Below are positions 19,866 through 36,000 of a stretch of 64,000 bases of DNA, one piece after another. The stretch comes from Sporocytophaga myxococcoides (GTDB lineage Bacteria; Bacteroidota; Bacteroidia; Cytophagales; Cytophagaceae). The stretch lies in the NCBI RefSeq assembly GCF_000775915.1, contig NZ_BBLT01000002.1:716384-780383 (forward strand), given 5' to 3'. The notes beneath the pieces are model-generated. The model did no database searches and was not told the origin of the DNA. It worked only from the letters and a program-made list of their open reading frames with translations. The position numbers and the translations under genes were made by a program. Positions within the stretch are counted from its first letter, which is position 1; each line of letters opens with the position of its first letter.

Positions 19866-21614
19866 TTAAACTTTAAACTTATTACTTACAACTTTCTCCC
19901 CCCATTCCATATCTCCCGGTAATTCTAAAGAATTAAACTCAAGATGAAGTACTCTCCGGTGTTTCTGATTTGTCACTTTCGAAGAAGCATGTAATAAAAG
20001 CGGTTTCATAAAATGTATTCCACCAGCTTTAACTTCGCAAGGTAGTGCCATACTGTTCTGAGTGATGGTTGCTATCTGATCATTATTGAGTTTCTTTTGA
20101 TGAGATCCAGGGATTATTTTTAATCCACCATTTCTTTCATCCGTGTCATCCAGATGGATTCTGATGGTCAGAGTGTTTTTGAGAATGTCTTCGGGTGGAC
20201 AAACGCTGATTACACTGCCTTTTTGAGTCCATCCTGTATAACCTACAGTTTCTGTTTTTTTATTGACATTAATCGTGATATCCTGATGCCAGGTAACATA
20301 CCAGTTGGATTCAGGAGGTTTATCAAAATAAATGGCTTTGGTTAAAAACAGATTGTCTCCTTTGCTGGCAAGTATTTTCTTTAAGTTTTTATTAAAGAGA
20401 AAAGATTTAAGCTCTGGAATTTCAATTAATAATTGTCTGATAGCATATACCTGTTTATCTCCTTTTGGAAGTGTTTTGTTAAAATACTCCTGAATAATAG
20501 TTTTAATTTTGTTGACTTCTTTTTTAGTATATACATTTTGCAAGATAGCGGAGCCTCTTCCTTCTGCTTTCTGCAAGGCCGTTTTTATGCCCGAGGAAGT
20601 AAGGTCCGCATCATACAAGTCCAACGCATGAGCCAGTCTTTCTCTGATTCTTCTTTTCAGAGTCTCAGGCTTGATCACTCTGACTGCATCTCCAAATCCA
20701 AGTATTTCTTTTTCCAGTTCGAAGTTAAGCTGGACTTTTAACGAGATTACTATACCATTGTCAGTGGTCTCAATGACTTGCTGTGAATGATGAAGGGGTT
20801 TGGTAATTACATAAGGAGCATTTGTCCGATCTACAAAAAGCATTACATTTTCGGGCTCACCATTAGGATTTACAGAAACACCGATTACGTCTTTGAAATA
20901 GTCCTTGATATCATCCTGTTTATATTTTATATAAGATACATTAGAAGGAGATAATCCTTCGATTCGGTCCAGAGCCAGATTTAACATAGGCTGTCCTCTT
21001 TTGGTGATGCCAAGTACAAACCATCTGTTACGGTATTCTTTTAATAAATAGGGATGAAAGGACAAGGTGTTTGCTGTTCTTGATTTGAAAGACTTGTATA
21101 CAATATTCAAAGGTGTTTCATTGATAATGGCCTGATACAAACTATCCAGATACTGAAGACCTTTGAGGTTTTCATTTTTTTCAAAATCAATGACTGAACT
21201 TTTATTGGTTTTGGAAGAATGTATTTTATCTTCCAGTCGCTGTACCATACCGCTCAGTTCCTGAAAATGACTAAAACCACTGAATTGCTTTAACAATTCT
21301 ACCACTTCAGTGAGCTTATTCAAATCCTGTCCGGTTAATGGGATATTGGTGATGGAATAATCTGGGTCTTCATAGGTATAATATTTTTTATCCAAAACGA
21401 TAATAGGAGCATTATAGCCCAGTTTATCGCTCCTCATCATCTGAATATCCATTTGGATGGACCTTTTGCTAATTCCCTTGTCAATTCCCTCGTATTCATA
21501 AAGTGCTTCAGAACAAGCTTCGATCAGGTCATCCAGTGTCCATTTTCTGTACCTATTCTGTAAGCAGTTGTCAATGGTCTTATAGCGTATCAGTGCGTTT
21601 CGGTTTACTGGCAT
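19866..21614 (-). CDS. WYL-domain transcriptional regulator fused to a phytanoyl-CoA dioxygenase (PhyH)-like Fe(II)/2OG oxygenase domain
   Basis: N-terminal MPVNRNALIRYKTIDNCL… is a wHTH typical of Bacteroidetes YafY/WYL regulators. The C-terminal ~250 aa carries …WHQD…HLDDTDERNGGLKIIPGSH…, a PhyH-like 2-His-1-carboxylate pattern. The start is taken at Met23; the ORF is open back to 21680. Confidence 0.6.
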   Translation of the reverse strand: MPVNRNALIRYKTIDNCLQNRYRKWTLDDLIEACSEALYEYEGIDKGISKRSIQMDIQMMRSDKLGYNAPIIVLDKKYYTYEDPDYSITNIPLTGQDLNKLTEVVELLKQFSGFSHFQELSGMVQRLEDKIHSSKTNKSSVIDFEKNENLKGLQYLDSLYQAIINETPLNIVYKSFKSRTANTLSFHPYLLKEYRNRWFVLGITKRGQPMLNLALDRIEGLSPSNVSYIKYKQDDIKDYFKDVIGVSVNPNGEPENVMLFVDRTNAPYVITKPLHHSQQVIETTDNGIVISLKVQLNFELEKEILGFGDAVRVIKPETLKRRIRERLAHALDLYDADLTSSGIKTALQKAEGRGSAILQNVYTKKEVNKIKTIIQEYFNKTLPKGDKQVYAIRQLLIEIPELKSFLFNKNLKKILASKGDNLFLTKAIYFDKPPESNWYVTWHQDITINVNKKTETVGYTGWTQKGSVISVCPPEDILKNTLTIRIHLDDTDERNGGLKIIPGSHQKKLNNDQIATITQNSMALPCEVKAGGIHFMKPLLLHASSKVTNQKHRRVLHLEFNSLELPGDMEWGEKVVSNKFKV

Positions 21615-21804
21615 TATATAAGTTGTAAGTAGTAAGTTATAAGTTTTAAGGAGATGTACTGTCTGTTCATAGTTTATCAACTCCTTCCAGCTCCCTCCTT
21701 ATGTTAAATTTAAAAAAAATATTTTACACCTGCGCAAAAATAATGCGTAGTGACTTTTCAATTTTGATTCAATAATTTAAATAACTGATATTTAAATCTT
21801 GAAA

Positions 21805-21934: not shown

Positions 21935-23359
21935 ATGCAGAATAAAGGGAAAATAAACGGAAATCAGTTAATTGAAATTGGATATCCGGAAGGTAAGGTA
22001 ATTGGTATAGCTCTGGAGGTTATTCAAAAAGAGTACTCCTTAATGGAGCCGGACGAAGTGCTTGACATAATGAAAAATGTTTTGGCTTCTCCATCAGATT
22101 TTCTTAATGATTTAAAAACGTCTTTTATTGCTGAAGAATTGCTGAAACCGAATAAAAAGGATGAGATAATCGAACTTTTACCTTCTCCTCGTTTATATAA
22201 AATCTATGGAAAAGAAGGAATTGAAGCGGGAGCTATCAAACAGATGGACACAGCCATGAGACTTCCTGTTTCCATTGCAGGTGCTTTAATGCCTGATGCA
22301 CATCAGGGGTATGGACTACCAATAGGTGGAGTCCTTGCTACAAGAAATACAGTAATACCTTATGGTGTAGGTGTGGATATCGGATGTCGTATGTGTATGT
22401 CCATTTTTGATATACCCGCAGGTTATGTAGAAACAGGAAAAGGAGATCTGATGAAGATGCTTGTTAATAATACTATGTTCGGCAGAGCTACTTTTAAGAA
22501 GCCCAAAGATCATGAAATTATTTCAAATCCCCTTTTCTCTGAAATTGAAATTCTGAGAGGTCTCAAAGAAAGGGCATATGCTCAACTTGGATCATCAGGT
22601 GGTGGAAACCACTTTGTGGAATTTGGTATAGTTGAGGTGGTAGATTCTAATAATGAATGGAATATCGCTCCTGGAAAGTATTTATCACTCTTGTCGCACT
22701 CAGGCTCAAGAGGAATGGGAGCAACGATTGCAAATTATTATACAAAACTGGCAATGGAAACTTGCAAGTTGCCTCAGGAAGCTAAACACCTTGCCTGGCT
22801 TGATCTTGATACTGAAGCAGGGCAAGAGTACTGGCTTGCCATGAATCTTGCAGGAGATTATGCATCAGCCTGTCATCATCAGATCCATGAAAGAATGGCT
22901 ATTGGCTTAAGAACCAATCCTGTTGCTATGATTGAGAACCATCATAATTTTGCATGGAAAGAAAAGGATGAGAAAGGCAATGATGTAATCGTTCATAGAA
23001 AGGGAGCAACCCCTGCTGGCAAAGGTGTATTGGGTATTATTCCAGGTTCTATGACTGCTCCGGGTTATGTGGTAAGAGGTAAAGGTGATGAAGCATCTGT
23101 TAACTCTGCTTCCCATGGTGCGGGACGTGCAATGTCCAGAACGCAGGCTAAGAATACTCTTAAGCCGGAGACGGTAAAGCAGCAATTACAAAAGGCAGGC
23201 GTTGAATTGATTGGCTCTGGGTTGGACGAAGCACCGATGGCTTATAAAGACATCAGGACTGTTATGGAAGCTCAGAAAGATCTTGTTGAAGTTGTAGGAG
23301 TGTTCTTACCGAAAATCGTTAGAATGTGTGGAGATGAGAAGTTTCAGGAGGTTGATTAA
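21935..23359 (+). CDS. rtcB: RNA-splicing ligase RtcB
   Basis: 474 aa. GGGNHF, metal-binding His cluster and catalytic-His context (…HRKGATPA…) are present. Confidence 0.9.
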   Translation: MQNKGKINGNQLIEIGYPEGKVIGIALEVIQKEYSLMEPDEVLDIMKNVLASPSDFLNDLKTSFIAEELLKPNKKDEIIELLPSPRLYKIYGKEGIEAGAIKQMDTAMRLPVSIAGALMPDAHQGYGLPIGGVLATRNTVIPYGVGVDIGCRMCMSIFDIPAGYVETGKGDLMKMLVNNTMFGRATFKKPKDHEIISNPLFSEIEILRGLKERAYAQLGSSGGGNHFVEFGIVEVVDSNNEWNIAPGKYLSLLSHSGSRGMGATIANYYTKLAMETCKLPQEAKHLAWLDLDTEAGQEYWLAMNLAGDYASACHHQIHERMAIGLRTNPVAMIENHHNFAWKEKDEKGNDVIVHRKGATPAGKGVLGIIPGSMTAPGYVVRGKGDEASVNSASHGAGRAMSRTQAKNTLKPETVKQQLQKAGVELIGSGLDEAPMAYKDIRTVMEAQKDLVEVVGVFLPKIVRMCGDEKFQEVD

Positions 23360-23389: not shown

Positions 23390-23428
23390 GAAAAAAAAGG
23401 ATCATGATAGTAATGATCCTTTTTTTAT
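23390..23428. terminator. bidirectional terminator between rtcB and the RT gene
   Basis: A8 run, then aggatcat-gatagta-atgatcct hairpin, then T7. Confidence 0.65.
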
Positions 23429-23446: not shown

Positions 23447-24958
23447 TTACCAGAATTTCCACCAGGGTTTCTTCTTTATTGCTTCCGGATTGATTTTGCT
23501 ATCAGGAGCTTCCGGGACCTTTGGTTTATGTTTTATTACATGTTTGTAACGATGCGTTTCAAGTATTTTTTTTACCCTTTCTTCCAATGGTTTTCCTTTC
23601 TCCGGATTAACCATCTTTACAAAGTTGGCATATCCTTTTATTGAAGCAAGAAGGTTGGTGCTGTTGTTCCAGTGTTTTCCTTTTATTGTTCCTTCTTTTT
23701 CTATTTGATGCAACAGGGCTCTGAATTTATCCAATTCCTTTCTGCATAAACTTGGTTTATCATTTACTATAATTCCTGTTACTTCCTTTCTCGCTCCTTT
23801 CCGCAGCACACGAAGCTTATCAGGATTAATATAAAGCTTTTCATCTTTGATTATTTTTTTAACAAAACCTAAAAGAGTTGAAGTATTAGATGTTGCTATT
23901 CCTGAAGCAGAGAAAGTAAGATCGTCTGCATATCTTGTGTAATTGAAATGAAGTTTATAAGCAATACCTTTTAATCTCTTATCAAGTTTACGACAAATAA
24001 GATTAGTGATCGCAGGGCTTGTTGGAGCGCCTTGCGGGAGGAATCTTTCACTTCCTGCGGCATAGTATGTTTCTCCGTCCAGTTCCACCTGATCACAATC
24101 GGGTTCAGTACAGATCAATGCAAATATTGTTGAAATCTGTTCTGAATAACCCAATGCAATAAACAAACCTTTTACCCTTCGATAGTTGATAGAAGGGAAG
24201 AAATCTTTAAGATCTATATTCACAACTACCTCTGCTTTTACATGTGGTAAAGCATTGCTGACGATAGATCTTTTCTTTATAAAACCATGTGCAGATTCTG
24301 TTGCATCTATTTTATTAAGTATGTTTTCAAGTATCCAGTGCTGAGCTTTTTTAAGCCTTGGCATAGGAGTGGAGATAAGACGTTTGCCTCCTGTTTTTTT
24401 AGGTATGTAAAACCTTCTGTAATGATTGATTTTACTGATTGTTCTATTATAAGAAAGAAACTTTAGTTCACCGATCGTTATCTTCATGGCAGCGGATAAC
24501 TCTTCTGCTGTTTGAAATACAGGCAACTGGTATTTTAAAAGCTTGTTGCTATCGCTTACTTGATTATTCAGACCTTTAGAAACTTTCTCTCCAAGATAAA
24601 TGATATTTTTATCTTTAAGTTCTTTCCATCGTGCAGCTTTGGCTTCCCTTTTTTGCTTTCTGAGAATTTTGTTTTCTTCTCTTTTTTTTCTGGATTGCTC
24701 AAGCCTCGCTTTCCTTACCTGTTTAAGCGCTTCTTCTCTGTTTTGATAAATCCGCTGCTGCTGAAGTAATTTATTCAGTTCTTTGATAAGGTCAGCCTCT
24801 TTGTGGATCAGCATTTCCGGAATTTCCGAAACTCCTTCATCACTTTTCCAGAAGCCCAGACGCTTCATCTCTTCAAGTATGACAGCATTTCTGCCGCTTG
24901 CTTTGATGCGCTCGTACAACTGCTGTCTGGTTGGCTGAGAGTTTTCTGTGTTGACCAT
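23447..24958 (-). CDS. retron-type reverse transcriptase with ~150-aa Lys/Arg-rich coiled-coil N-terminal extension and ~90-aa C-terminal extension
   Basis: KRSIVSNALPH contains the retron NAxxH motif and DLKDFFPSI follows it. LPQGAPTSPAITNLI, YTRYADD (YADD catalytic motif) and RKEVTGIIV (retron VTG motif) are present. The start is taken at the Met at 24958, just downstream of the a2 repeat; the ORF is open back to 25021. Confidence 0.8.
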   Translation of the reverse strand: MVNTENSQPTRQQLYERIKASGRNAVILEEMKRLGFWKSDEGVSEIPEMLIHKEADLIKELNKLLQQQRIYQNREEALKQVRKARLEQSRKKREENKILRKQKREAKAARWKELKDKNIIYLGEKVSKGLNNQVSDSNKLLKYQLPVFQTAEELSAAMKITIGELKFLSYNRTISKINHYRRFYIPKKTGGKRLISTPMPRLKKAQHWILENILNKIDATESAHGFIKKRSIVSNALPHVKAEVVVNIDLKDFFPSINYRRVKGLFIALGYSEQISTIFALICTEPDCDQVELDGETYYAAGSERFLPQGAPTSPAITNLICRKLDKRLKGIAYKLHFNYTRYADDLTFSASGIATSNTSTLLGFVKKIIKDEKLYINPDKLRVLRKGARKEVTGIIVNDKPSLCRKELDKFRALLHQIEKEGTIKGKHWNNSTNLLASIKGYANFVKMVNPEKGKPLEERVKKILETHRYKHVIKHKPKVPEAPDSKINPEAIKKKPWWKFW

Positions 24959-24970
24959 AGAAGTATAAAA

Positions 24971-25197
24971 AATGGTAGTGTACAGGACATTCTTCGTCAT
25001 TCTGAGGACCGGATTGGTCAACTCCAGCGAGACGTCACTATATGCTTATTTCAATTCCTGGAATTCTTACCGGAAATGAGCATATAGTGGCAGGATCGCA
25101 CAGTTAAGAACGAGCCGGTGGCGCGTTAGTAAGCTGTGTACAAGGACTGTGATACACAGCCCGGGTTGCAAGATTTTAATACCCTGCCACTACCATT
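24971..25197 (-). ncRNA. putative retron msr/msd non-coding RNA
   Basis: 10-bp perfect inverted repeats aatggtagtg (24971-24980) and cactaccatt (25188-25197) bound the region in an a1/a2-like arrangement. Inside are a 17-bp bulged stem (25035-25051 / 25072-25089) and a 7-bp hairpin (25134-25159). It lies immediately 5' of the RT ATG on the same strand. Confidence 0.5.
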
Positions 25198-25198
25198 A

Positions 25199-25230
25199 CA
25201 AAGCTAAATTTTAAATTTATCTGTTACAAA
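25199..25230 (-). promoter_or_regulatory. Bacteroidetes sigma-A-type promoter for the msr/msd-RT transcript
   Basis: On the minus strand, TTTG at 25230-25227 is followed by a 20-nt spacer and TAGCTTTG at 25206-25199. This predicts a start about 7 nt downstream, at the a1 repeat. Confidence 0.45.
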
Positions 25231-25232
25231 CT

Positions 25233-26876
25233 TTAATACAAATTTTGTTTCTTTCTGAATGCAATTCTCAATGCAAGCATATGCTCACATGGTCCCTGCA
25301 TCAACTTATTTTGATGAAAGAAATTACAACTACACTTCCCGCTTACAATTCTTTCATCACTATCAATCACAAGTTCTGGGTTATACGTTTTGTTATCCTC
25401 TTTAACGGTTCCTGTCAACTTTTGCTTTCCTTCGGATACATCTGCTTTGAATTGGATGCTCCGGTTGTCAAAGAACCTATTGGCTTTTTCTTCTCTTGCA
25501 TTAGAAAATCTTAATGCTTCAAGGGGTAATGTTTCTCTTGAAATCTCTCTTATCCGATAACAATTATTGTTGAGATCATAAATAGCCTTTCCCTGTTGGG
25601 TAAACGCGGACAAAGCTCCAAGGACAAGCGATTTGTCCAGTTGTAGTCTTGAAGCCAGTACTTCCGGCTTTTCAACCCACTTTTCTTTTAGTCCGATAAA
25701 AACCTTTTGCATGGTCATGGCATCAGCTTCTGCTCTCGGAGCAAGAAGATCAAAGTTGCCCATGCGTGACCAGTCATTGGCAGTCCAGCCGGACAAGCCA
25801 AGTGTGAAATTCATTTCACCTAAATCTGCTATGTAAAAGGAGGGAAGCCCTGAACCTAAAAGAACTACTTTAATAGAATTTGTTACAGGTATTAATCTTT
25901 CTAAGAGTAATAATCTTCTTCTTCCCCATACTTTTATTTCTTTGGGTTCATTACCAGTGTAAATAGATCTGAGGCATTTGATCTCGTAGTTCCAGGGTTC
26001 AAAAATCATTCTTACAGGTTCCCCAGGCTTCAGAATATATCGGATGTATCTTGGTCCTTCTTTTTCTTTATGTCTTTTGAGTATAAAGCAGATGTTGTAA
26101 ACATCCATTGGATGCAATTCGAAAGATGTTGCCGGAATAGACATTGCAGAGCTCACCTGAAGAAATCCTCTTACCCAGCTTGCCGGTACATCAATCTTCA
26201 CTTCTTTATAGCTTTCTTCTGCAGTAGTCTGAACTTCAAATCCGGAAGGATCTATGTTGAAATGTGTATCTTTATATTCTCTTATCTTCTGAAATTCATT
26301 ATACAGACTGGAAGAATAATCAATATTGGTTGTACCGCACTTAAACTCACTTAAATTTTTAAATACATTGTAGTTACATCCAAGCTTGCCGTAAGAAGAT
26401 TCGTCCTGACTGAAACATTCAAAAAATAATTCATCAGGATGAACTGTTATGACGGGATCATAAACCCTCATCAATTCCGGGCTGGTCCGGTAGAGGTACT
26501 GGAAATATTTGTTTTGAGCTTTGTAGAAGGGCTCCATTACATTGTATTTTTCCCTTCTTACTTTTTCTAGCTCTACCCTTATGCCTTTAAGTTTTTGCTC
26601 TACGTCTTCTGCTCCTCCTAAATATTGTGCAAGCCAGATATCTTCCTGCTCTTTTGCCCATGTCTTATAGTCTGTTTTATCTTTAGGTTTAAAACGGAAA
26701 TCAGAAACTACTATGTCATGAAGTGCAGATATGGCTTCTCTGAACGGAATATGTTTGTTAAGATACCCGGAGAAGTAGGTTGGTTCTCGGTATATATCAG
26801 GTGCGAAATTCATGCTTGTAGAGCCTGATGTATTTTTAACCGTGGTATCTCCTTTAAATTTATAATTGAATTCCAT
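25233..26876 (-). CDS. SWIM zinc-finger domain protein
   Basis: C-terminal …CSCNFFHQNKLMQGPCEHMLAL is a CxC…CxH SWIM finger. 547 aa. Its start lies 3 nt from the stop of the WGR gene. Confidence 0.65.
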   Translation of the reverse strand: MEFNYKFKGDTTVKNTSGSTSMNFAPDIYREPTYFSGYLNKHIPFREAISALHDIVVSDFRFKPKDKTDYKTWAKEQEDIWLAQYLGGAEDVEQKLKGIRVELEKVRREKYNVMEPFYKAQNKYFQYLYRTSPELMRVYDPVITVHPDELFFECFSQDESSYGKLGCNYNVFKNLSEFKCGTTNIDYSSSLYNEFQKIREYKDTHFNIDPSGFEVQTTAEESYKEVKIDVPASWVRGFLQVSSAMSIPATSFELHPMDVYNICFILKRHKEKEGPRYIRYILKPGEPVRMIFEPWNYEIKCLRSIYTGNEPKEIKVWGRRRLLLLERLIPVTNSIKVVLLGSGLPSFYIADLGEMNFTLGLSGWTANDWSRMGNFDLLAPRAEADAMTMQKVFIGLKEKWVEKPEVLASRLQLDKSLVLGALSAFTQQGKAIYDLNNNCYRIREISRETLPLEALRFSNAREEKANRFFDNRSIQFKADVSEGKQKLTGTVKEDNKTYNPELVIDSDERIVSGKCSCNFFHQNKLMQGPCEHMLALRIAFRKKQNLY

Positions 26877-26879
26877 CCC

Positions 26880-29800
26880 TTATTTCTTTACATATTCAGA
26901 ATAATCAACTACTTTAACAAAGTTATGCAATGAAGGATATTTTTTCCGGATATCTCTGAGTATGTCAATACATCCGGCTTTTTCTGAAATAGCCATAGAC
27001 CCTGAAGCTCTATTCAGAATTTCTGATGCAGTTTGTGCAACGGTTTCATTTTTCATAGCTTCTTTTTTCAGAAAATCCAGTGCGCGCAATTTTGCTACTT
27101 TCCCTTTATTTACCTGAGAAAGTAAGGTGACAAAATATAGCTTCAGTTTTTCAATTACATCTGGTTTGTCTCCGGCGTATGTTTCAAGATATGATGAAGT
27201 AAATAGCTGCAATCTTGTATCCGGGTGCTGACTTAATTTTAATAAATATTCTTCTCCGTCTTCGATCTTAAAGGATTTGGTAATCATTTCCTTTCCAAAG
27301 TTTTGAACAGTTTCTCTTGTGCTGTCGCAAAGAGCAATAAGGTTTTCAGCAGACCAGTCTTCTTGTTTGAATGTATTTCTGAAATAATCAAAAGCAAAGT
27401 TTCTTGTGTCTTCCCAGTCAGAATCTACAATCCTTAATGCTTCTTCTTTATTTTCCTTTATCCTGAGATGGTTGTTATTGTAGTAGTTCCACGCATACTT
27501 TCTTATCTCTTCATTTGGATTACCCGAAATCTTCACAATTTCAGAGATTGATAATTCCTCTTCTCTGATTGTCATTTTTAGTAAAGCAGCACCAAGTAAC
27601 TGTGCAGATTTAAATTTTGAATGAAGGAGTAAAAGTCCCTGATTTTTATTGATGTATGACAAGCTGCCAGAAAGCTCCGTTATTAAGAGGTTAAGTAAAT
27701 CATGATGTACCCCTTCATAAGTTTCCTTCATCAGAAATGCGGGAACAAACAAGTCGATAAGCTCATTCCCGAATGCAGGGTATGCCTTCGTGAGATTTGC
27801 AATGATTGGTTTTACTGCATTTCGTACATCCGGAAGTGGTGATAAACAAAAGCTGATAAGGAGTTCTTTTTTTTCTATCAGAGAAGTTTCAGGAAATCTT
27901 CCTAACAGCTCGATACCTGCAGTTCTCGCTTTTTCATTTTCTGATTTTAAAAGAGCTTGAAGGAGTTCACTAGGAATAAGTTCAGGATTTAGTTTTTTGT
28001 GTACCAGTATAGAACCTGCAATGGCATGTACTTCCGGTGAAAAATGTTGAAGCAGATCTTTGATGATATCTGTTCCTATAAAATCAAGCTGGTTTCCGAA
28101 TATATCCAGCATTGTTTGACCTGTATGTGAAATAAAGAGCTTATCTTCTTCCGATCGAACTTCAGTCTGGATAATGGTAGCAAGTATTTTCCCAATGACT
28201 ATTTCAGCTTGTTGATCAGGAATGTTTGCTGAGATTAGTAGTGACCTTACTTTGGTTTGTATGAAAGAATTCCTAAGGAAAATCAATTCAGTAACGAATT
28301 CTGAATTACTTATGAATACTTGTTTCTGCTCTTCAATCCATTGCAAAGCCTGAATGCTGGCTTCTTCAAGAGGACTTTGAAGCATCCCGATTAGAAGTTG
28401 TGTGTCAGGATTAGCGGAATTATAAGCTTTCATAGCTTCTTCCAATCCAACCTTTCTTGTTATCTCAAAAGCAGCATTCAGAATATCTACAATATTTTCT
28501 GTTGTAAGCTGATTAGCGAATTCGGGGTTTGCTTTAAATACCTTTAATGCAAACTCATGTACCTGTAAAGATCTTGAGCACGATAAGAGCTTTATAACTT
28601 CATTTGCCGCGGTGTCCCAGAGTTCGGGAAAGGCCTCTTCTCTTTGTAATGGCGCTTCATTACCTGGAATATAAGGCTCTATACATTGCCATCCGCTTGG
28701 GCCCAAAGAGTATCTTGGACTGTTTTGAAAGAGTATGAAATTATATGCTTTGTATATAGCATTAGCTTCGAAATATGTTTTTGTCTCAATTACATCGTGC
28801 CTTTTGGTTTGCTTGTTATATACATAAGTATAGGTGGAGCGATGATAGGAAGGTTTGCTGTCTTTGCTATCATCAAAAGCCAATAATACTCCACAAGCCA
28901 TTTCCTTATACGATGAAGATTTAACTTCACCAAGCCTCTTAAGTGATCTGACTACTCTTGCAGAAAGATACCTTTTGGTTTTACTGCTAAAAGCTCCTTT
29001 ATCACTGTATGGACCTGGAGAATGTTTATCAATATTTTTTGTTATGATCCCAAAAGTTTCATAATCTTCCCACATCTCAGCCATTTTAAAGATATGTCTG
29101 ATATGTTTGAAATAATTGTAGGTAAGAGGAACATTATTGATTATACGTGATAATATTCTCTTTAATTCTCTATTATCATGAGATAAACGATAAAGGGAAG
29201 ACAGATACTCGTTGGATGTTGATTGGGTTTTAAAGAGTAATTCCTTTAATTGAATATGAAGCCCTGAATAATTTCCTACCAGCAATAATTTCTTTATATG
29301 TTCTGGAAGTGTTGCAAGAAGATACTCTCCGGCTGTTTTTCTCTCTGCAGGATCTGATATCCTGAATAAAGCTTCTGATATGATATCATTTACATGTTGA
29401 GGATAGTCATGATTCTGTTGCAATGACTTAAGAAAAGAGGCTGAGTTTGAATTACCGCATTTTCCGATTGTCCATATTGCAGAATAAACGGAAATGTTGT
29501 CAGAAAGGTCTGTCAATTTTTGAATTAAGGGAATTGCTTCATGTATATTGAGTTCGCCTGCTCTCCAGAATACTCTTGACAAAGGCCAGTTTTCGGGTTG
29601 ATCACCATCTACTGCATTCTTTAAAATTTTAAGAATGGCTTTCTTTCTGCGGTCATTGTCTTTTGCGCCTTGAACAGGCTTACTGACAATCCCCATTGGC
29701 TCACCTTCTGTGGAATATCCCTTGCTTCTTTTTTCCTTTTCCAGCGCATCAAAAACTTTATTTGCTTCCTGCAGGTCAACAGGAAAAATAGTTTTGGTAC

Positions 29801-29939
29801 CTTCTTTCAGGGTTGCGCCTCTTCTTCCATATCTGAAATTAACCAGAAATCCTCCTCCGGATTCGCAAAGGTCAATTTCATATACTTTGTCCGAGGTTCC
29901 TTCCTGAAAGTATAATTTTATTTGCTTTATCAGTTTCAA
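26880..29939 (-). CDS. WGR-domain protein with long HEAT/ARM-like helical repeat region (MolR/YehI-like)
   Basis: N-terminal …TSDKVYEIDLCESGGGFLVNFRYGRRGATLKEGTKT…KGY is a WGR domain. An ~850-aa helical region follows. Confidence 0.7.
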   Translation of the reverse strand: MKLIKQIKLYFQEGTSDKVYEIDLCESGGGFLVNFRYGRRGATLKEGTKTIFPVDLQEANKVFDALEKEKRSKGYSTEGEPMGIVSKPVQGAKDNDRRKKAILKILKNAVDGDQPENWPLSRVFWRAGELNIHEAIPLIQKLTDLSDNISVYSAIWTIGKCGNSNSASFLKSLQQNHDYPQHVNDIISEALFRISDPAERKTAGEYLLATLPEHIKKLLLVGNYSGLHIQLKELLFKTQSTSNEYLSSLYRLSHDNRELKRILSRIINNVPLTYNYFKHIRHIFKMAEMWEDYETFGIITKNIDKHSPGPYSDKGAFSSKTKRYLSARVVRSLKRLGEVKSSSYKEMACGVLLAFDDSKDSKPSYHRSTYTYVYNKQTKRHDVIETKTYFEANAIYKAYNFILFQNSPRYSLGPSGWQCIEPYIPGNEAPLQREEAFPELWDTAANEVIKLLSCSRSLQVHEFALKVFKANPEFANQLTTENIVDILNAAFEITRKVGLEEAMKAYNSANPDTQLLIGMLQSPLEEASIQALQWIEEQKQVFISNSEFVTELIFLRNSFIQTKVRSLLISANIPDQQAEIVIGKILATIIQTEVRSEEDKLFISHTGQTMLDIFGNQLDFIGTDIIKDLLQHFSPEVHAIAGSILVHKKLNPELIPSELLQALLKSENEKARTAGIELLGRFPETSLIEKKELLISFCLSPLPDVRNAVKPIIANLTKAYPAFGNELIDLFVPAFLMKETYEGVHHDLLNLLITELSGSLSYINKNQGLLLLHSKFKSAQLLGAALLKMTIREEELSISEIVKISGNPNEEIRKYAWNYYNNNHLRIKENKEEALRIVDSDWEDTRNFAFDYFRNTFKQEDWSAENLIALCDSTRETVQNFGKEMITKSFKIEDGEEYLLKLSQHPDTRLQLFTSSYLETYAGDKPDVIEKLKLYFVTLLSQVNKGKVAKLRALDFLKKEAMKNETVAQTASEILNRASGSMAISEKAGCIDILRDIRKKYPSLHNFVKVVDYSEYVKK

Positions 29940-30261: not shown

Positions 30262-30897
30262 ATGAATGAGTTATTAACTGAATCTTTTAAAAATTCAAAT
30301 TTACCAGTTACAATTTTACTTCTTCTGGTATTGTTTTACTGGGTTATAAACCTGATTGGGATATTTGATCTGGAAATGTTGAGTGGGGATGCAGAACTGG
30401 ATAAGGGACATGTTGAAGTTGAAACTGATTCTGATTCAATATTAGGAAAAACCTTTGATTTCGGAGATCTTCCAATTGCCATTGTGATCAGTTTTTTTGT
30501 ACTCTTTTTCTGGATGATTACAATATTGACAAATTATTATCTGGGAAATTCTTCCTTATTTTTTGCCTTGATTATATATCTTCCTGCAATCATCGGGTCT
30601 TTTATTGTAACGCGCATCATCTCGATTCCGCTCGCGAAAATATATAGTTTGCTGAAGTTAAATACAGAAGAGGCAGAAACCGTTAGTGATTATACCGGTG
30701 CTATCTGTATGGTTTTTGTGGAAGCTACTTCGGAAAGAAATGGTCAGGGTGAGATCAATAGAAATGGAGATCCTATCAGGGTTAATATCAGGACCTATCC
30801 TGGTAAACAGATGTTAAAGGGGAGCTCAGCACTTTTAATTGAATATATCAAAGGTGGTGATTACTATATCGCTGAGCCATACGATTCCGAAAGATAA
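30262..30897 (+). CDS. NfeD-like membrane protein (short NfeD/YuaF type) preceding flotillin
   Basis: 2-3 N-terminal TM helices and a C-terminal beta-rich soluble domain (…GAICMVFVEATSERNGQGEIN…IRVNIRTYPGKQ…) consistent with an NfeD OB-fold. It sits 46 bp upstream of a flotillin gene. Confidence 0.5.
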   Translation: MNELLTESFKNSNLPVTILLLLVLFYWVINLIGIFDLEMLSGDAELDKGHVEVETDSDSILGKTFDFGDLPIAIVISFFVLFFWMITILTNYYLGNSSLFFALIIYLPAIIGSFIVTRIISIPLAKIYSLLKLNTEEAETVSDYTGAICMVFVEATSERNGQGEINRNGDPIRVNIRTYPGKQMLKGSSALLIEYIKGGDYYIAEPYDSER

Positions 30898-30943
30898 ACT
30901 AATACTAAACACATATTAACAACTCTTATAAATCTTAAATCCA

Positions 30944-33058
30944 ATGTTAGAGAATGTATTAATGACGACAATTCTGATAGGAATTTTTTTCGTCGTGATG
31001 ATCCTTGTTCTGTTAGTAAAATGGTATAAGAAAGTACCGCAAGGAAAGGCCATAGTACGAACAGGCGCAGGAGGAACAAAGGTTACATTTACCGCTATGT
31101 TCGTGATTCCGGTTCTTCATAAAATGGAGATTATGGATATTTCTTTGAAAACGCTTCATATTAAAAGAATTGGAAAAGACGGACTTATTTGTCAGGATAA
31201 CATTCGTGCAGACATAGAAGTGGCTTTTTTTGTAAGAGTTAATAAAGGTGTAGAAGATGTTGTAAAGGTTGCTCAGACAATTGGTTGCGAGCGTGCTTCC
31301 CACAAGGAAACCCTTGTTTCTATTTTTGATTCAAAATTTTCAGAGGCACTAAAAACAGTAGGCAGAAGATTTGATTTTGTTTCGCTTTATTCCGATAGAG
31401 ATAAATTCAAAAAAGAAATACTAGATATCATCGGAACTGATCTTAACGGTTATCATCTTGATGATTGTGCAATAGATTATCTTGAGCAGACACCGCTTGA
31501 GTTTATGAAGACCGATAATATCCTTGACTCACAAGGTATCAAGAAAATTACCGAGATCACTGCTCAGCAAAAAATTCTTGCAAATGAAATCAAAAGAAAT
31601 GAAGAGAAGGTACTTCGTAAGCAGGATGTAGAAGCCAAGGAAGCTATTTTAGAGCTTAACCGTCAGCTTGCTGAAACAGAAGAAAGGCAGCAAAGAGAAA
31701 TTGCTATCATTCGTGCAAGAGAAAAAGCTGAAGCTGAAAAGGTAATGTCAGAAGAGAAACTAAAATCTGAACTGGCAAGAATAAAATCAGAAGAAGGTAT
31801 TCAGGTTGCAGAGGAAAATAAACAGAGGCAAATTATTGTGGCTTCTAAGAGCAAAGAGAGAACCGATGCAGTGGAAACACAACGTGTGGAGAAAGATAAA
31901 TTACTTGAAGCAAACGAAAAAGAAAGAGTTGTTGCTCTGGCAATAATCGAAAAGGATAAAGCTCTTGAGGAAGAAAAGAAAAACATTCAGGATGTGATCA
32001 GAGAGCGCGTAATGGTTGAAAAAACGGTTGTTACTGAAGAGGAAAAGATAAAGGATGCAAAAGCATTTGCTGAAGCAAACAGAAATAAGGAAGTAGCAAT
32101 TACGAATGCGACAACTCAAGCGGAAGAGTTGAAGGTGAAAGAAATTAAAATGGCAGAAGCAATGAAAGCAGCTGCTGAGATCAAAGCATTGCAGTTAATG
32201 TTGGAAGCAGAAGCTGCACAAAAAGCATCTGCAAGTCAGGCAGACGCCAGAAGAACAATTGCAGAGGTAACAATACTTGAGGAATCAACGAAAGGGTTGG
32301 CTGAAGCTCAGGTGATCGAAGCTAAAGCGAAAGCCCAGGAAAAACAAGGGACTACAGAGGCCCTGGTTTTTGAGAAAAAATCTGTTGCAGAAGCGAAAGG
32401 CATAGAAGCGAAAGCAACCGCAGAGGCAAAAGGTATTGAAGCCAAAGCTGCTGCTGATGAGAAAAAGGGTACAATGGAAGCTACAGTTTTACACAAGAAG
32501 ATGGAAGCAGAAGCTCAGGGTATCACTCAGAAAGCCGATGCTATGAAGAAACTGGATGGGGTTGGTAAAGATCACGAAGAATTTAAACTTAAACTGGATA
32601 AAGAGAAATCTATCGAGCTTGCTGAAATCAACATTCAAAAAGATATTGCCGAAGCCCAGGCTAAAGTTATCTCTGAAGCATTGAAGGCTTCTAAGATAGA
32701 GATTGTTGGTGGCGAAACAATGTTCTTTGATAAAATCGTTGGTTCAATCACAAAAGGAAAGTCACTTGATAAGATGGTGGACAATAGTAAGCTTCTTACG
32801 GATATCAAAGGATCCTTTTTAGGTGATGGAAATGAAAACTTACTTGAAAGAATACAGGATCTGTTAGGTAAGCATAAGCTTTCTACCGAAGATATCAAGA
32901 ACCTGTCTATATCTGCTCTGATATTAAAATTAAGTTCAGGAACTGTTGATAATGCCCTTAAAAATACACTTGCTTCTGTATTGAATGAGGCAAGGGATCT
33001 GGGAATTGCAAACCAGACGCTTGAGAACCTTGGAATAAAGATTAAAACAAAAGAATAA
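30944..33058 (+). CDS. flotillin-family SPFH/band-7 protein with long Glu/Ala/Lys-rich coiled-coil region
   Basis: N-terminal TM, then …VRTGAGGTKVTF…IPVLHKMEIMDISLKTLHI… (SPFH), then a ~400-aa EA-repeat region including AKGIEAKATAEAKGIEAKAAADEKKG repeats. Confidence 0.85.
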   Translation: MLENVLMTTILIGIFFVVMILVLLVKWYKKVPQGKAIVRTGAGGTKVTFTAMFVIPVLHKMEIMDISLKTLHIKRIGKDGLICQDNIRADIEVAFFVRVNKGVEDVVKVAQTIGCERASHKETLVSIFDSKFSEALKTVGRRFDFVSLYSDRDKFKKEILDIIGTDLNGYHLDDCAIDYLEQTPLEFMKTDNILDSQGIKKITEITAQQKILANEIKRNEEKVLRKQDVEAKEAILELNRQLAETEERQQREIAIIRAREKAEAEKVMSEEKLKSELARIKSEEGIQVAEENKQRQIIVASKSKERTDAVETQRVEKDKLLEANEKERVVALAIIEKDKALEEEKKNIQDVIRERVMVEKTVVTEEEKIKDAKAFAEANRNKEVAITNATTQAEELKVKEIKMAEAMKAAAEIKALQLMLEAEAAQKASASQADARRTIAEVTILEESTKGLAEAQVIEAKAKAQEKQGTTEALVFEKKSVAEAKGIEAKATAEAKGIEAKAAADEKKGTMEATVLHKKMEAEAQGITQKADAMKKLDGVGKDHEEFKLKLDKEKSIELAEINIQKDIAEAQAKVISEALKASKIEIVGGETMFFDKIVGSITKGKSLDKMVDNSKLLTDIKGSFLGDGNENLLERIQDLLGKHKLSTEDIKNLSISALILKLSSGTVDNALKNTLASVLNEARDLGIANQTLENLGIKIKTKE

Positions 33059-33082
33059 CACGTCAAGATTTATTAAGTAATC

Positions 33083-36000
33083 ATGGCAGAAGTTAAACCT
33101 GAGAATACTTCAGATTCTAAAGCAGTGCAACTTGATTCCGGTACTTATGAAGTTTTGCGAAGCAGACTTGATAAGTCAGGCAAGGACCTAAGGGAAAGAC
33201 TGGGGAAACTTAACGAAGACAGAAAGAATGTATTCGGCGCTATAGAGCAAAAGCTCGTAGCAACAGCAAGGATTACCACGGAAAATAATTGTGTACCCAG
33301 AGATATGGTTTCTCTGGGTACTTATCTTTTATTCGGATACAACGTCCATATTGGATTAAGATCAGAAACCGTTCTAACGGATGTATTCAGCATCTATCAG
33401 TATAAAGACCATTCATTTGTTCATGCTGGGCTTAATAAAATCCAGACTGAACTTTTTGAATCGGATTTTAAAGAACTTTATAAGTATTACAAAAGTACTT
33501 CCTTTGAAAAGTTTGCAATTATTGGTCCTTATATGTACATGATCTTCCGCGTCGGAAAAGGCGCGAAGGACATTAAGACATTTAAATGGCTCATAAGTGG
33601 CGAGGAGTTGAAATATGAAGGAAACAGAAGCGAACATGAATATAAGTTTCCTCCTCAATATGGATTCGAATGGGAGCGCACATCAAGGGATTATCACAGA
33701 AAGGGTAAGCACCCTCATGTATCCGTACTTGACAAAGTCTTCATAGAAACGATAGGGGGGGATTTAACAGTTAAGATTGAAGACAATACTGAAGACGGGG
33801 AAGGTATCTACTCCGAACCTGTTGAAGATAAAGATCAGAGACTGGATGATGCAGAGATGTATTATGCAGATCTGGGAAATATCATTCTGCTGAAGATAAA
33901 ACCTTTTAAAGAGGACCAATTCAGATATATAGTCTATAACGATAAAATTAAGAAGGCACAGAGGATTGACGCAATAAAGGATTCCTGTGTTTTGCTTCCT
34001 GAAAGCCACGGAATTATTTTTTCGAAGGGATATTATCTCCAGACTGGAGAGTTTAAACTTTTTGATAACGACCTTCAGGGACTTAGGTTTGAAAAGAGAA
34101 TTCAGTCTCCTAATGGGGAAGATTATTTATATGTGTTTTATAATGACGAGCATGGTGCATATATTCTGCTTCCATATAATCTTATAGAACAAAAGGTTGA
34201 CAACCTTATTCTTTGTCATGGTTACTCTATATTTGACAATGGAGAGCTGATCTATTTTAACGATCAGAATGAACCTTCAAAACATCATACCATTCAGATA
34301 TGGAGTTCTGCTTATTTCAGCAGTACCTATATTCCTCCGATAGTTCCAGATTCTTATTTGTATAAAATCGGAAACAAGGACATCGTCCGTTGTATGGCCG
34401 AATGTTCGGAAGTGCTCGGCCTCCTTTCCAAAAACGACGAAGCTTATTCAAATTTATATCTAGATATTGTCAAGATCAGCACGGACCTGCTTGATTCTTA
34501 TTATTGGATCAGGGAAGAGGCTACATTCAACCTGGCTCAGCCTGTTGCAGAAATTAAATCAACAGCTGCTGCTACCATTGAGGAATTTGAAAAGGTAGTC
34601 AGGATAAAAAGGAATACATTAGATCAGGTTAAAAAACAATCAGACCGGGCAAAAGCTATTCTTGATCAGATAAAGCGCGACAGGTTTGAAGACATCAATA
34701 CTTTTGTAAATATTCTTTCTGAGTTAAGGTCATTGAGAGGGGATATTATTTCTCTGAAAGAACTCAGGTATGTCGATCTTATTGCTGTCAGCGATCTTGA
34801 AATGAACATATCGGATGAAACGGAAAAGCTTTCGGCAAAGTGCGTTGAGTTCCTCTTGCAGGAAAAGGCTTTGCTTCCTTACCATGAAAGGGTAACTTTT
34901 TTAAATGCTGCTGCCGAAAAGGTAACGAAGGTTACCGAAGCGAATAAGACTGAAGAGGAGATCGCTCAGGTCAGTAATGAGCTTGAAATGCTGATTCAGA
35001 TTGTCAGCAACCTGAAGATTGAAGATGCAACTCAGACGACCAAAATCATAGATACGATTTCTCTCATTTTTTCTGAGATCAATAAATTAAAGGCTTCTCT
35101 TAAAAACAGAAAACTGGAGTTAAGGAGATCTGAAAGTGAAGCGGAATTTAATTCTCAGATAAAACTATTGGATCAGTCCATAGTAAACTATCTGGATTTA
35201 AGTTCTACGCCTGAGAAATGTGAAGAGTTTCTTTCTAAGCTTATGATACAGCTGGAAGAACTGGAAGCTAAATTTCCCGACTTCGATGGTTTTATCAAAA
35301 TAGTTTCTGAAAAAAGAGAAGAGCTTTACGGAGCCTTTGAAAACCGTAAGCTGTCTTTAATAGAAGCTCGTAACAACAGGGCCAACGCCCTCATGAGCGC
35401 TGCGGAGCGTATCTTGTCCGGAGCAAAAAACAGAGTGGCTACTTTCGATACAGCTGCTGAGATCAATGGCTATTTTGCCTCTGATTTGATGATGGACAAA
35501 CTCAGGGATATTGTAAAGCAGTTAAATGATCTAAGTGATACTATAAAGGCGGATGACATTCAGGGCCGTATGAAAAACCTCCGTGAAACAACACTGAGAC
35601 AATTGAAGGATAAGAAAGAGTTGTTTGTCGGAGGTGCTAATGTTGTAAAATTCGGAAATTATAATTTTTCTGTAAACACACAGGCTCTAGAGCTTGCAAT
35701 GGTGAACAGGCACGAAGAAATGTTTTTTCATATCACCGGCACAAGCTTCTTTGAAAAAGTAACAGATCCTGAATTCCTCAATACCAAGTCTTTCTGGAAT
35801 CAACACCTGATATCTGAAAACGACTATGTTTACAGAGGAGAATACCTGGCTTGGCTTCTTTTTAATGAAGGTCAGGTAAACTCTAAATATGATAAAGAAA
35901 ATTTAGTTAAGCTGGACGAGCCTTCTCTTACTGTCGTAGTTCAGGAATTCATATCCAACAGATATTCCGAAGGGTATGTCAAAGGAGTGAATGACAGGGA

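Follow-up and report, generated by a model that had tools for sequence, protein, structure and literature searches.

WGR-HEAT and SWIM zinc-finger proteins as conserved partners of a probable type XIII retron in a Sporocytophaga-like genome

Gene content and organization of the locus

The window (the whole stretch of DNA that was analysed, 64,000 nt) contains a cassette in which a gene for a WGR-HEAT protein, a gene for a SWIM zinc-finger protein, an msr-msd non-coding RNA (ncRNA) and a reverse transcriptase (RT) follow one another on one strand (Table 1). An earlier, sequence-only reading of this DNA had placed the WGR-HEAT and SWIM genes 3 nt apart, co-directional with the RT and 38 nt ahead of the first retron repeat, with the RT convergent to rtcB, and the open reading frames, the sequence and the coordinates agree with it on each of these points. 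The junction between the two genes reads AAA TAA ggg ATG GAA; 38 nt separate the end of the SWIM stop codon, at 25233, from 25194, where GGTAGTGGCAGG of the a1 repeat begins. The A-run, the AGGATCAT/ATGATCCT hairpin and the T-run that separate the RT from rtcB probably form, judging from their sequence, a bidirectional terminator at which the retron operon ends. This hairpin is absent from the output of a consensus promoter and terminator scan, which does not cover Bacteroidota promoters and whose results were at the level of shuffled sequence. We do not count rtcB as part of the system and rejected it as the retron effector, as it is convergent, lies behind the terminator-like hairpin and is conserved only in a 90%-identical relative (L001). 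Other conflict-type genes are found in the same window, namely a WYL-WCX fusion, RtcB and a DUF3686 AAA giant.

Table 1. Features of the retron cassette and its borders (positions in the window)
Feature	Position	Strand	Basis or remarks
Type XIII retron cassette (probable)	23447-29939	-	WGR-HEAT gene, SWIM gene, msr-msd ncRNA, RT; all co-directional
WGR-HEAT/ARM gene, 1019 aa, TTG start; Mestre cluster 216, PADLOC WGR_XIII	26880..29939	-	PDLC02973 E=0, 1135 bits, residues 1-1014
WGR domain, residues 1-78	29706..29939	-	Pfam PF05406 at 13-78, 25.8 bits (cut-off 22)
Alpha-solenoid (HEAT/ARM-like) scaffold, residues 91-1000, small beta insert 365-419	26940..29669	-	AF2 model
SWIM zinc-finger gene, 547 aa, ATG start; Mestre cluster 114, PADLOC SWIM_XIII	25233..26876	-	PDLC02972 E=6.9e-236, residues 1-544
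SWIM N-terminal region, residues 1-137, beta strands and long helical pair	26466..26876	-	Alignment to RT-less relatives
Acidic motif D140-x7-D148-x4-E153-x32-D186-x38-E225 (Mestre 'DEDE' motif, PMC7736814)	26202..26459	-	64-homologue alignment
DNA-clamp-like domain, residues 250-361, two beta-alpha-beta-beta-beta units	25794..26129	-	
Winged-helix domain, about residues 386-442	25551..25721	-	
SWIM zinc finger CxCx12CxH (C515, C517, C530, H532)	25281..25334	-	Translation; residues invariant in 64-homologue alignment
Retron ncRNA msr-msd	24971..25197	-	36-sequence alignment
ncRNA: a1	25178-25197		
ncRNA: msr hairpin	25144-25162		
ncRNA: long msd stem-loop	25008-25119		
ncRNA: a2	24971-24991		
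Retron RT, 503 aa from ATG 24958, clade 10 / RT_XIII, N-terminal extension of ~150 aa	23447..24958	-	PADLOC RT_XIII E=6.7e-189
A-run, hairpin, T-run between convergent RT and rtcB	23391..23427	.	Read from sequence
rtcB	21935..23359	+	ORF listing; convergent with RT

Reverse transcriptase and ncRNA

The RT carries an RVT_1 domain (1.6e-24), and the score of the PADLOC RT_XIII model far exceeds those of the other retron RT models. Its NAxxH (N235, A236, H239), VTG (393-395) and YADD (343-346) motifs are invariant in the RT alignment, and its best relative in the PDB is the Ec86 RT (2e-45), with the RTs of Ec67, Ec78, Ec83 and Eco8 also matching. We place the start of the protein at ATG 24958 because homologues are about 500 aa long, the RT_XIII match to the longer ORF does not begin before residue 22, and positions 24971-25021 are taken up by the conserved ncRNA, including its a2 arm. 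The upstream candidates, TTG 25021 and ATG 25000, were rejected: both overlap the conserved ncRNA, and homologues begin at the equivalent of ATG 24958.

For the ncRNA, RNAalifold predicts 51 base pairs from the 36-locus alignment, 41 of them with compensatory changes, and the minimum free energy of -87 kcal/mol (z = -5.6) is reached with a1 and a2 paired. The nhmmer match in the window has E=3e-40, and across 131 loci the a1/a2 helix has a median length of 12 bp, compared with 8 bp in shuffles. CTTGC is invariant in the alignment, and the G at 25169 within it is, from its sequence context, a candidate for the branching G of the msDNA. The nearer inverted repeat CCTGCCACTA, at about 25086-25095, was discarded as a2, the comparative data putting a2 behind a conserved ACGAAG motif at the position given in Table 1. 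A search of the whole window with Rfam at gathering thresholds returned no family and left the type XIII msr-msd undetected.

Domain structure of the partner proteins

The TTG start of the WGR-HEAT gene is credible because the N-terminus that it yields, MKLIKQIKLYFQEGTSDKVYEIDLCE, agrees with MKLxxQxxLxFQEGxSDKVYEIDLCE, the consensus of the family, and the length of 1019 aa is shared by the closest homologues. A search with the WGR model, which had been recommended with the sequence-only reading, finds the domain above the Pfam cut-off in this protein; AF2 models it as a four-stranded beta sheet and a helix (E2-13, E16-27, E30-39, E45-48, H56-72), and it is predicted to be a nucleic-acid-binding module. 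Beyond it, the model (mean pLDDT 89.1) is a pure solenoid scaffold with a Pfam HEAT_2 match at residues 631-708 (28.9 bits, cut-off 27.7), and its Foldseek matches in the PDB are generic HEAT scaffolds (SCC2, SF3B1, CAND1, PP2A-A, karyopherins). Neither Pfam, the AF2 model nor Foldseek against the PDB detected a catalytic domain, the Pfam DUF4132 model did not match, and a sequence search of the PDB gave no meaningful match. The protein has in common with PARP-type and bacterial WGR proteins (e.g. the MolR/YehH-like WGR-DUF4132 proteins) an N-terminal WGR domain above the Pfam cut-off followed by a helical region, but it differs from them in having neither a PARP catalytic domain nor DUF4132, its C-terminal part being formed by about 900 residues of HEAT solenoid.

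Homologues of the SWIM protein are 48-76% identical across phyla, a conservation about equal to that of the RT, and at 50% identity the family falls into 1493 clusters. The zinc finger named in the sequence-only reading, for which a SWIM model search had been suggested, is borne out by the intact CxCx12CxH motif and by Pfam matches in 62 of 64 homologues, although the protein's own match at residues 507-536 (18.6 bits) falls slightly below the cut-off of 19.6. All 64 homologues retain D140, D148, E153, D186 and E225, which form a candidate metal-binding or catalytic site. As modelled, the protein looks like a PCNA-like clamp fold joined to a winged helix, and not like a transposase. Compared with sliding clamps (PCNA, 9-1-1, herpesvirus UL44, bacterial beta clamp), the clamp-like domain of the SWIM protein shows 5-14% identity and no clamp match in Pfam and, unlike them, it is one of several domains in a protein that also has a zinc finger and a winged helix. 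The likeness is one of predicted fold, and we do not take it as family membership. Pfam searches of the 64 homologues with E values up to 5 found no clamp, DDE, transposase or nuclease family, and PDB sequence searches with the protein and with the 64-sequence profile gave no meaningful match. Clamp-like folds are not known to be catalytic. We found no prior description of the predicted clamp-like fold of the SWIM partner in the type XIII literature that we searched.

The acidic residues have been read differently. Mestre et al. suggested that the SWIM protein is a domesticated DDE/DEDE transposase (IS256 or Mutator-like) with an RNase H-like catalytic core (PMC7736814); it would then act as a classical two-metal nuclease. 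The invariant D-x7-D-x4-E-x32-D-x38-E spacing is in keeping with such an origin, and the region around this motif is the part of the protein that AF2 models poorly (pLDDT below 50), which leaves room for a fold other than the one seen elsewhere in the model. MULE transposases, too, have a C-terminal SWIM finger. We regard this transposase reading as distinctly unlikely.

Assignment to retron type XIII

Type XIII retrons were defined by a clade-10 RT and a type-specific msr-msd together with a SWIM protein of cluster 114 and a WGR-like HEAT/ARM protein of cluster 216 (Mestre et al. 2020, NAR 48:12632, PMC7736814). In that study, cluster 114 is characterized by a SWIM CxCx12CxH finger, a DEDE motif and a winged helix, the RT is reported to co-evolve with cluster 216, and Retron-Mxa1/Mx162, Mxa2/Mx65, Nex2/Ne144 and Sau1/Sa163 are listed as members. 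PADLOC-DB represents the type by the models WGR_XIII, SWIM_XIII, HEAT-ARM_XIII and RT_XIII, and all three proteins of our locus are matched over their full length (WGR_XIII E=0, SWIM_XIII 6.9e-236, RT_XIII 6.7e-189). The SWIM protein has the DEDE motif, the winged helix and the C-terminal CxCx12CxH finger of cluster 114, and the WGR-HEAT protein shows the features of cluster 216, with a WGR_XIII match over residues 1-1014, Pfam WGR and HEAT_2 domains, an AF2 solenoid and a 3-nt gap to the SWIM gene. We consider it highly probable that the locus is a type XIII retron of the canonical form, carried by a Sporocytophaga-like member of the Bacteroidota, with the WGR-HEAT and SWIM proteins as its partners. 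Its parts list is identical to that of the 'retron XIII' of PADLOC and DefenseFinder, its gene order is the majority order and there is no structural difference; the present copy comes from a Sporocytophaga-like Cytophagales genome, and its nearest database proteins are 90-96% identical. The proposal that a WGR/SWIM effector is not among the described retron types does not hold, since this combination has been type XIII since 2020 (PMC7736814, Table 1 and text) and PADLOC-DB has models for it. A retron with WGR-HEAT and SWIM partners is, hence, already known, having been catalogued in 2020 and being detected automatically by PADLOC. In a 2026 survey, the type has 143 candidates and a broader taxonomic spread than any other retron type.

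Conservation of the gene neighbourhood

We assessed the linkage of the genes in 80 genome loci with RT homologues and 80 metagenome loci with SWIM homologues. Both partner genes lie on the same strand as the RT in 56 of the 61 RT loci with enough flanking sequence, spread over at least seven phyla. Among the 80 RT loci, WGR-SWIM-RT is by far the most frequent order (50 loci), followed by RT-WGR-SWIM (5) and SWIM-RT-WGR (1), always on a single strand, and nine further loci end at a contig edge yet show the SWIM gene. Five loci with full flanks are without both partner genes, neither occurring within 10 kb; inspection of these revealed no alternative conserved effector, although several cyanobacteria have an RNase III gene there. 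Conversely, an RT is present in 54 of 65 informative SWIM loci (15 of the 80 were too short, and 11 have no RT nearby); some close SWIM homologues lack an RT within 6 kb and, in two cases, the WGR gene as well. The ncRNA follows the SWIM gene within 400 nt in 121 of 135 loci and is kept behind it in 9 of the 11 loci that have no RT nearby. Physical linkage of the ncRNA gene is to the 3' end of the SWIM gene, and it persists in loci whose RT is located elsewhere.

The three genes and the ncRNA are shared by Bacteroidota, Cyanobacteria, Verrucomicrobiota, Acidobacteriota, Myxococcota, Pseudomonadota and Planctomycetota, with differing flanking genes, and the arrangement is far beyond chance because the same order and strand recur in dozens of unrelated genomes. 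The sequence-only reading had chosen conservation of the neighbourhood as the test by which its proposal of a retron effector module could be refuted, along with the existence of a different conserved partner for the RT. The linkage proved strong in both directions and extends to the ncRNA, and no other partner emerged. The two genes can, hence, be called the partner module of the retron on the strength of these counts, whereas the word effector describes a putative role.

Relatives without a reverse transcriptase

More distant SWIM relatives (about 23% identical; L081 and L082) occur without an RT and are paired with solenoid proteins of the DUF6493/DUF7824/DUF7825 kind, as in Asticcacaulis pASDW145_1 and a Diaphorobacter plasmid. 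Homology of these SWIM proteins to the type XIII protein starts at its residue 138 and extends to the C-terminus (hhalign probability 99.3%; PADLOC SWIM_XIII 1e-50), and they share its zinc finger; their partner is a solenoid protein of about 850-980 aa, no RT is annotated nearby, and the gene order is reversed, with SWIM first. Of the acidic residues, D140, E153, D186 and E225 are kept in an RT-less relative and D148 is replaced by H. The first 137 residues are missing: hhalign of the 64-homologue profile against the L081 protein begins at residue 138, the SWIM_XIII profile matches of L081 and L082 start at position 102 or later, and many representative SWIM clusters match profile positions 110-545 only. 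This N-terminal region is a candidate for a retron-coupling module. The DUF6493-type partner has no WGR domain, and neither BLASTP nor hhalign detected homology between it and the WGR-HEAT protein or its profile. RT-less pairs of this kind were not found described in the type XIII literature that we searched.

That such a pair can function without a retron is the one observation in favour of the alternative raised in the sequence-only reading, namely that a retron has inserted next to an independent WGR-SWIM system and the genes are chance neighbours. In the RT-less relatives themselves, however, the first 137 residues are missing, and the partner has no detectable homology to WGR-HEAT. The recurrence of the three genes and the ncRNA with order and strand unchanged in at least seven phyla with differing flanks, and the start of the ncRNA tens of nt behind the SWIM stop codon in 121 of 135 loci, also contradict a chance association. 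We consider it extremely improbable; the neighbourhood counts effectively refute it.

Possible mechanism and function

The characterized tripartite retrons (Ec86/type II, Ec78 and Ec83/type I-A, Ec48/type IV, Eco8) also place an RT and msr-msd beside accessory genes and have a homologous RT core in common with our locus, and by analogy type XIII likely shares their logic of an effector guarded by msDNA. In contrast to these systems, the type XIII partners have no NDT, Septu ATPase/HNH, TOPRIM, 2TM, TIR or protease domain; they are two large proteins without a recognizable toxin domain, encoded upstream of the ncRNA, and the ncRNA gene remains with a partner gene when the RT is displaced.

We propose a chain of events tentatively, as possible rather than probable. 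The RT would copy the msd stem-loop into msDNA, with priming from the invariant G of CTTGC, and a complex of the WGR-HEAT and SWIM proteins would bind the RT-msDNA particle. Contacts to nucleic acid may be provided by the WGR domain, the winged helix, the SWIM finger and the PCNA-like domain, with the HEAT solenoid serving as a scaffold. The coupling surfaces could lie in the N-terminus of the SWIM protein, which is specific to retrons, and in the N-terminal extension of the RT. As in other retrons, a disturbance of the msDNA during infection might free or activate the complex. The sole candidate for a catalytic centre is the D140/D148/E153/D186/E225 cluster, through which the complex would attack nucleic acid and cause abortive infection.

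A different role for a genuine module also has to be considered, in which the msDNA serves DNA repair or recombination, genome maintenance or regulation, or in which the partners act in the biogenesis or stabilization of the msDNA. The correlation of 0.78 between type XIII and host 16S, with vertical inheritance in myxobacteria, has been taken to suggest descent within lineages and possibly a role other than defence (PMC7736814). The unusually strong conservation of the SWIM protein across phyla points in the same direction, as do the predicted folds (WGR, PCNA-like, winged helix, SWIM), which belong to DNA-handling proteins and not to toxins. No defence phenotype was found in the literature: searches for functional work on type XIII, for Mx162 effectors and for a link to clamps brought up no toxicity, nuclease activity, msDNA binding or phage defence for the partner proteins, and no function or structure has been published for the two large partners, as far as the searched literature shows. 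On the other hand, the patchy but broad distribution and the unconserved flanking genes fit a cassette that moves horizontally, the invariant acidic residues hint at an enzymatic activity, and the window holds the other conflict-type genes noted above. To our knowledge, every retron type tested so far works in defence. We regard a module without an effector function in abortive infection as unlikely, and retain the defensive chain as the working model.

As to the origin of the system, a further proposal is possible but doubtful. The core of the SWIM protein would consist of a PCNA-like clamp, a winged helix and a zinc finger, in place of a DDE transposase, and would grip the msDNA stem-loop; the ncRNA gene would be an appendage of the SWIM gene and not of the RT; and type XIII would have arisen when an RT-less module of a SWIM protein and a solenoid, of the DUF6493 kind, gained an RT, a WGR domain and the N-terminal adaptor. 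An ncRNA that is an appendage of the SWIM gene would explain the putative split loci of cyanobacteria, in which WGR-SWIM-ncRNA and RNase III-RT occupy separate sites.

Conclusions

Type XIII contains the earliest described retrons (Mx162, Mx65). The attachment of the ncRNA to the SWIM gene, the predicted clamp-like fold of the SWIM protein with its invariant acidic cluster, and the RT-less relatives that pair SWIM with DUF6493 proteins provide experimental handles on the function of this type.

Identity and layout of the locus

Judged by its profile matches, the locus is a canonical member of retron type XIII, a class that had been catalogued before. The PADLOC-DB type XIII models match three proteins, each from end to end: the WGR-HEAT protein (WGR_XIII, E = 0, 1135 bits, residues 1-1014), the SWIM protein (SWIM_XIII, 6.9e-236) and the reverse transcriptase (RT_XIII, 6.7e-189, well ahead of all other retron RT models). 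The RT contains the Pfam domain RVT_1 and the hallmarks NAxxH, VTG and YADD, and its closest solved relative is the Ec86 RT (2e-45). Pfam places a WGR domain (residues 13-78) and HEAT_2 (residues 631-708) in the 1019-aa protein, both above cut-off, and a SWIM finger at residues 507-536 of the 547-aa protein, which at 18.6 bits falls just short of the cut-off (19.6) and in which the CxCx12CxH motif is literally present (C515, C517, C530, H532). The published definition of type XIII comprises RTs of clade 10 together with two linked proteins, with Mx162, Mx65, Ne144 and Sa163 as listed members and Dx7[D]x4Ex30-32Dx37E as the motif of the SWIM protein (Mestre et al. 2020, PMC7736814); a 2026 preprint gives 143 candidates, with the broadest phylum range among types. 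The counterpart here is D140-x7-D148-x4-E153-x32-D186-x38-E225, and each of the five residues is invariant across 64 homologues. The sequence-only reading had described the genes, their spacing and their domains correctly, as the ORF map, the junction sequence, Pfam and the SWIM motif confirm, and its proposal of an effector module holds in substance; its claim that a WGR/SWIM effector is absent from described retron types is wrong, because the arrangement is that of published type XIII, for which dedicated PADLOC-DB models exist.

Four genes are consecutive in the ORF map: WGR-HEAT, SWIM and RT on the minus strand, and rtcB on the plus strand. The first two are separated by 3 nt (AAA TAA ggg ATG), and the a1 arm of the retron ncRNA, GGTAGTGGCAGG, starts at 25194, 38 nt from the SWIM stop codon, which ends at 25233. 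Comparative mapping of a1 and a2 sets the RT start at ATG 24958 (503 aa) and not at an upstream TTG, which was rejected on account of the conserved ncRNA with its a2 arm.

Features of the retron locus and its surroundings (nucleotide positions in the window, or residues where stated)
Feature	Position	Strand	Description	Source
WYL + WCX fusion gene	19866-21680	-	604 aa, C-terminal PhyH-type (phytanoyl-CoA dioxygenase-like) domain; adjoins rtcB	
rtcB	21935-23359	+	474 aa; convergent with RT	ORF map
Terminator-like element	23391-23427		A-run, AGGATCAT/ATGATCCT hairpin, T-run; between RT and rtcB	
RT ORF	23447-25021	-		ORF map
T-run after a2	24962-24970		ATTTTTT	
a2 arm	24971-24991		pairs with a1	Window fold
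a1 arm	25178-25197		20 nt; pairs with a2	Window fold
SWIM gene	25233-26876	-	547 aa	ORF map
WGR-HEAT gene	26880-29939	-	1019 aa	ORF map
Three-gene block	30262-37990	+	co-directional; divergent from retron	
PspA/IM30 gene	39086-39817			
WGR beta sheet and helix	residues 1-78		followed by linker	WGR-HEAT model
Alpha-solenoid	residues 91-1000		small beta insert, 365-419	WGR-HEAT model

The rtcB gene lies outside the system, and its candidacy as a retron component was rejected, since among 80 RT loci it occurs only in L001, a 90%-identical Sporocytophaga MAG, at the same position. Its product matches Pfam RtcB and is a divergent homologue of this RNA ligase, as it scores far under the NCBIfam equivalog cut-offs. 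The element between RT and rtcB is likely a bidirectional terminator; a consensus scan did not report it. WYL regulators are frequent in defence and RNA-repair settings, and the dioxygenase fusion next to rtcB is unusual. In the three-gene block, possibly a further system for conflict or stress, the first two proteins (211 and 704 aa) match no family in Pfam, PADLOC or NCBIfam; the third, of 1635 aa, has an AAA domain at its C-terminus besides DUF7902 and DUF3686 ('ATPase involved in DNA repair', 3.9e-183).

Linkage of the RT with its partner genes

A profile search with RT homologues gave 80 genome loci (46-90% identity) from Bacteroidota, Cyanobacteria, Verrucomicrobiota, Acidobacteriota, Myxococcota, Alpha-, Beta- and Gammaproteobacteria, Planctomycetota and others, in which partner genes were sought by tblastn with the proteins of the window. 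The order is WGR-SWIM-RT at 50 of the 80, RT-WGR-SWIM at five and SWIM-RT-WGR at one, and the three genes share a single strand at all 56 complete loci. Nine loci are truncated by a contig end with SWIM still visible, ten are too short for judgement, and five (four cyanobacteria, one planctomycete) have neither gene by tblastn despite full 10-kb flanks. Conversely, a SWIM profile search gave 80 metagenome loci (57-75% identity), 54 with an RT, 15 too short, and 11 without an RT within at least 2.5 kb downstream. The sequence-only reading named two findings that would count against its module, RTs that never neighbour these genes, and WGR-SWIM pairs equally common without an RT together with a different conserved partner for this RT; neither was obtained, with linkage at 56 loci from RT to partners and at 54 from SWIM to RT, and the partner-module reading therefore stands over that of an independent neighbouring system.

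The ncRNA follows the partner genes

About 230 nt of intergenic sequence could be aligned from 36 loci, with the near-invariant blocks CTTGCA, ACGC.TCAC, TCTT.ACTG and GAGTTGA...CCAGTC...ACGAAG. In the RNAalifold prediction an msr hairpin is accompanied by a long msd stem with interruptions, and 41 of the 51 pairs show compensatory double changes; the window ncRNA has a folding energy of -87 kcal/mol (z = -5.6). The pairing places a2 at its tabulated position, and a nearer repeat at ~25090 was rejected; the median length of the longest gapless a1/a2 helix is 12 bp over 131 loci, versus 8 bp in shuffled sequences. In 65 of these 131 loci at least five consecutive Ts come after the a2 arm, so that helix and T-run together look like an intrinsic terminator between ncRNA and RT, a layout that leaves transcription of the RT to be explained.

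An nhmmer profile found the ncRNA core in 139 of 161 sequences, at most 400 nt downstream of the SWIM gene at 121 of 135 informative loci and at most 400 nt upstream of the RT at 112 of 130. In split cassettes it is the partner genes that keep the ncRNA, since 9 of 11 SWIM loci without a nearby RT retain it after the SWIM gene and no nhmmer match was obtained at three RT-only loci of cyanobacteria (L014, L018, L029). We did not find this described in the type XIII literature searched, and it is additional evidence of functional coupling. The data show a cassette of four parts that are inherited together, with covariation in its retron ncRNA.

RT genes without partners within 10 kb (L014, L018, L029, L032, L059) and WGR-SWIM-ncRNA blocks without an RT within 6 kb (among L095, L102, L103, L108, L110, L112, L114, L120 and L124) are apparent split type XIII retrons. 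The RT-only loci L032 and L059 do give an ncRNA match, L112 is a lone SWIM gene with ncRNA, and L052 and L120 have two ncRNA copies each. In several cyanobacterial relatives (L024, L032, L034, L036, L066, L076, L079) an RNase III gene (Ribonuclease_3 + dsrm, ~228 aa; e.g. L032:9136-9822) lies directly upstream of the RT, in L024 and L034 with the WGR-SWIM-ncRNA block on its other side, and elsewhere at a locus whose 10-kb flanks contain neither partner gene. The window has no RNase III gene; the enzyme may be a lineage-specific processor of the msr-msd transcript.

Protein models and the wider SWIM family

The WGR-HEAT model is of high confidence (pLDDT 89.1); its Foldseek matches are generic HEAT scaffolds only (SCC2, SF3B1, CAND1, PP2A-A, karyopherins), and no catalytic domain was detected. 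The SWIM model (pLDDT 60.5) is confident at residues 250-360, 385-440 and 460-547, the first of these with a predicted clamp-like fold. No relative was found among solved structures, and no transposase, DDE or clamp family was found by sequence in any of the 64 homologues. The transposase origin suggested by Mestre et al. (PMC7736814) is not supported by the modelled fold, but keeps a small probability because the acidic-motif region itself (residues 138-247) is poorly modelled (pLDDT <50).

The SWIM profile matches 1493 clusters at 50% identity (404 at E <=1e-30), many of them just at profile positions ~110-545. A Clostridium butyricum megaplasmid (L083, NZ_CP132345.1) carries a ~32% identical homologue flanked by an RT_XIII gene and a 978-aa protein with a weak WGR_XIII match (1.9e-18) and no Pfam family. 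In this Firmicutes variant of type XIII the RT start overlaps the SWIM end (8806 vs 8809), leaving no intergenic space at the usual position, so the msr-msd must be elsewhere or differ. More distant relatives in Asticcacaulis and Diaphorobacter (~23% identical) have no RT, and their SWIM gene precedes one for an 850-980-aa solenoid protein with DUF6493, DUF7824 and DUF7825. By hhalign, such an RT-less SWIM protein aligns to residues 138-540 of the window's family (probability 99.3%) and, like the window's, keeps D140, E153, D186, E225 and the zinc finger. Unlike it, the examined RT-less relatives lack the N-terminal 137 residues, and their partners have no WGR domain; between the DUF6493 partner and the WGR-HEAT protein no homology could be detected. 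We propose the SWIM N-terminus and the WGR domain as candidate surfaces for coupling the module to RT-msDNA.

Mechanism

The RT would copy the msd stem into msDNA, with the invariant G in CTTGC (25169) as its priming site, and the RT-msDNA particle would serve as the assembly site for WGR-HEAT and SWIM, until perturbation of the msDNA during infection released an activity centred on the SWIM acidic cluster. We hold this whole chain tentatively, at somewhat worse than even odds. The main rival, a DNA-handling role outside defence, seems to us unlikely, and would accord with the vertical inheritance reported by Mestre et al. (PMC7736814), a SWIM protein that is very highly conserved, and two proteins in which no toxin-like domain was found. 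The literature searched yielded no experimental study of how type XIII retrons function. What remains of interest in this retron is the mechanism of the type XIII class as a whole, together with the tie between ncRNA and SWIM gene, the predicted clamp-like fold, the DUF6493-associated relatives and the split loci of cyanobacteria with their RNase III gene.
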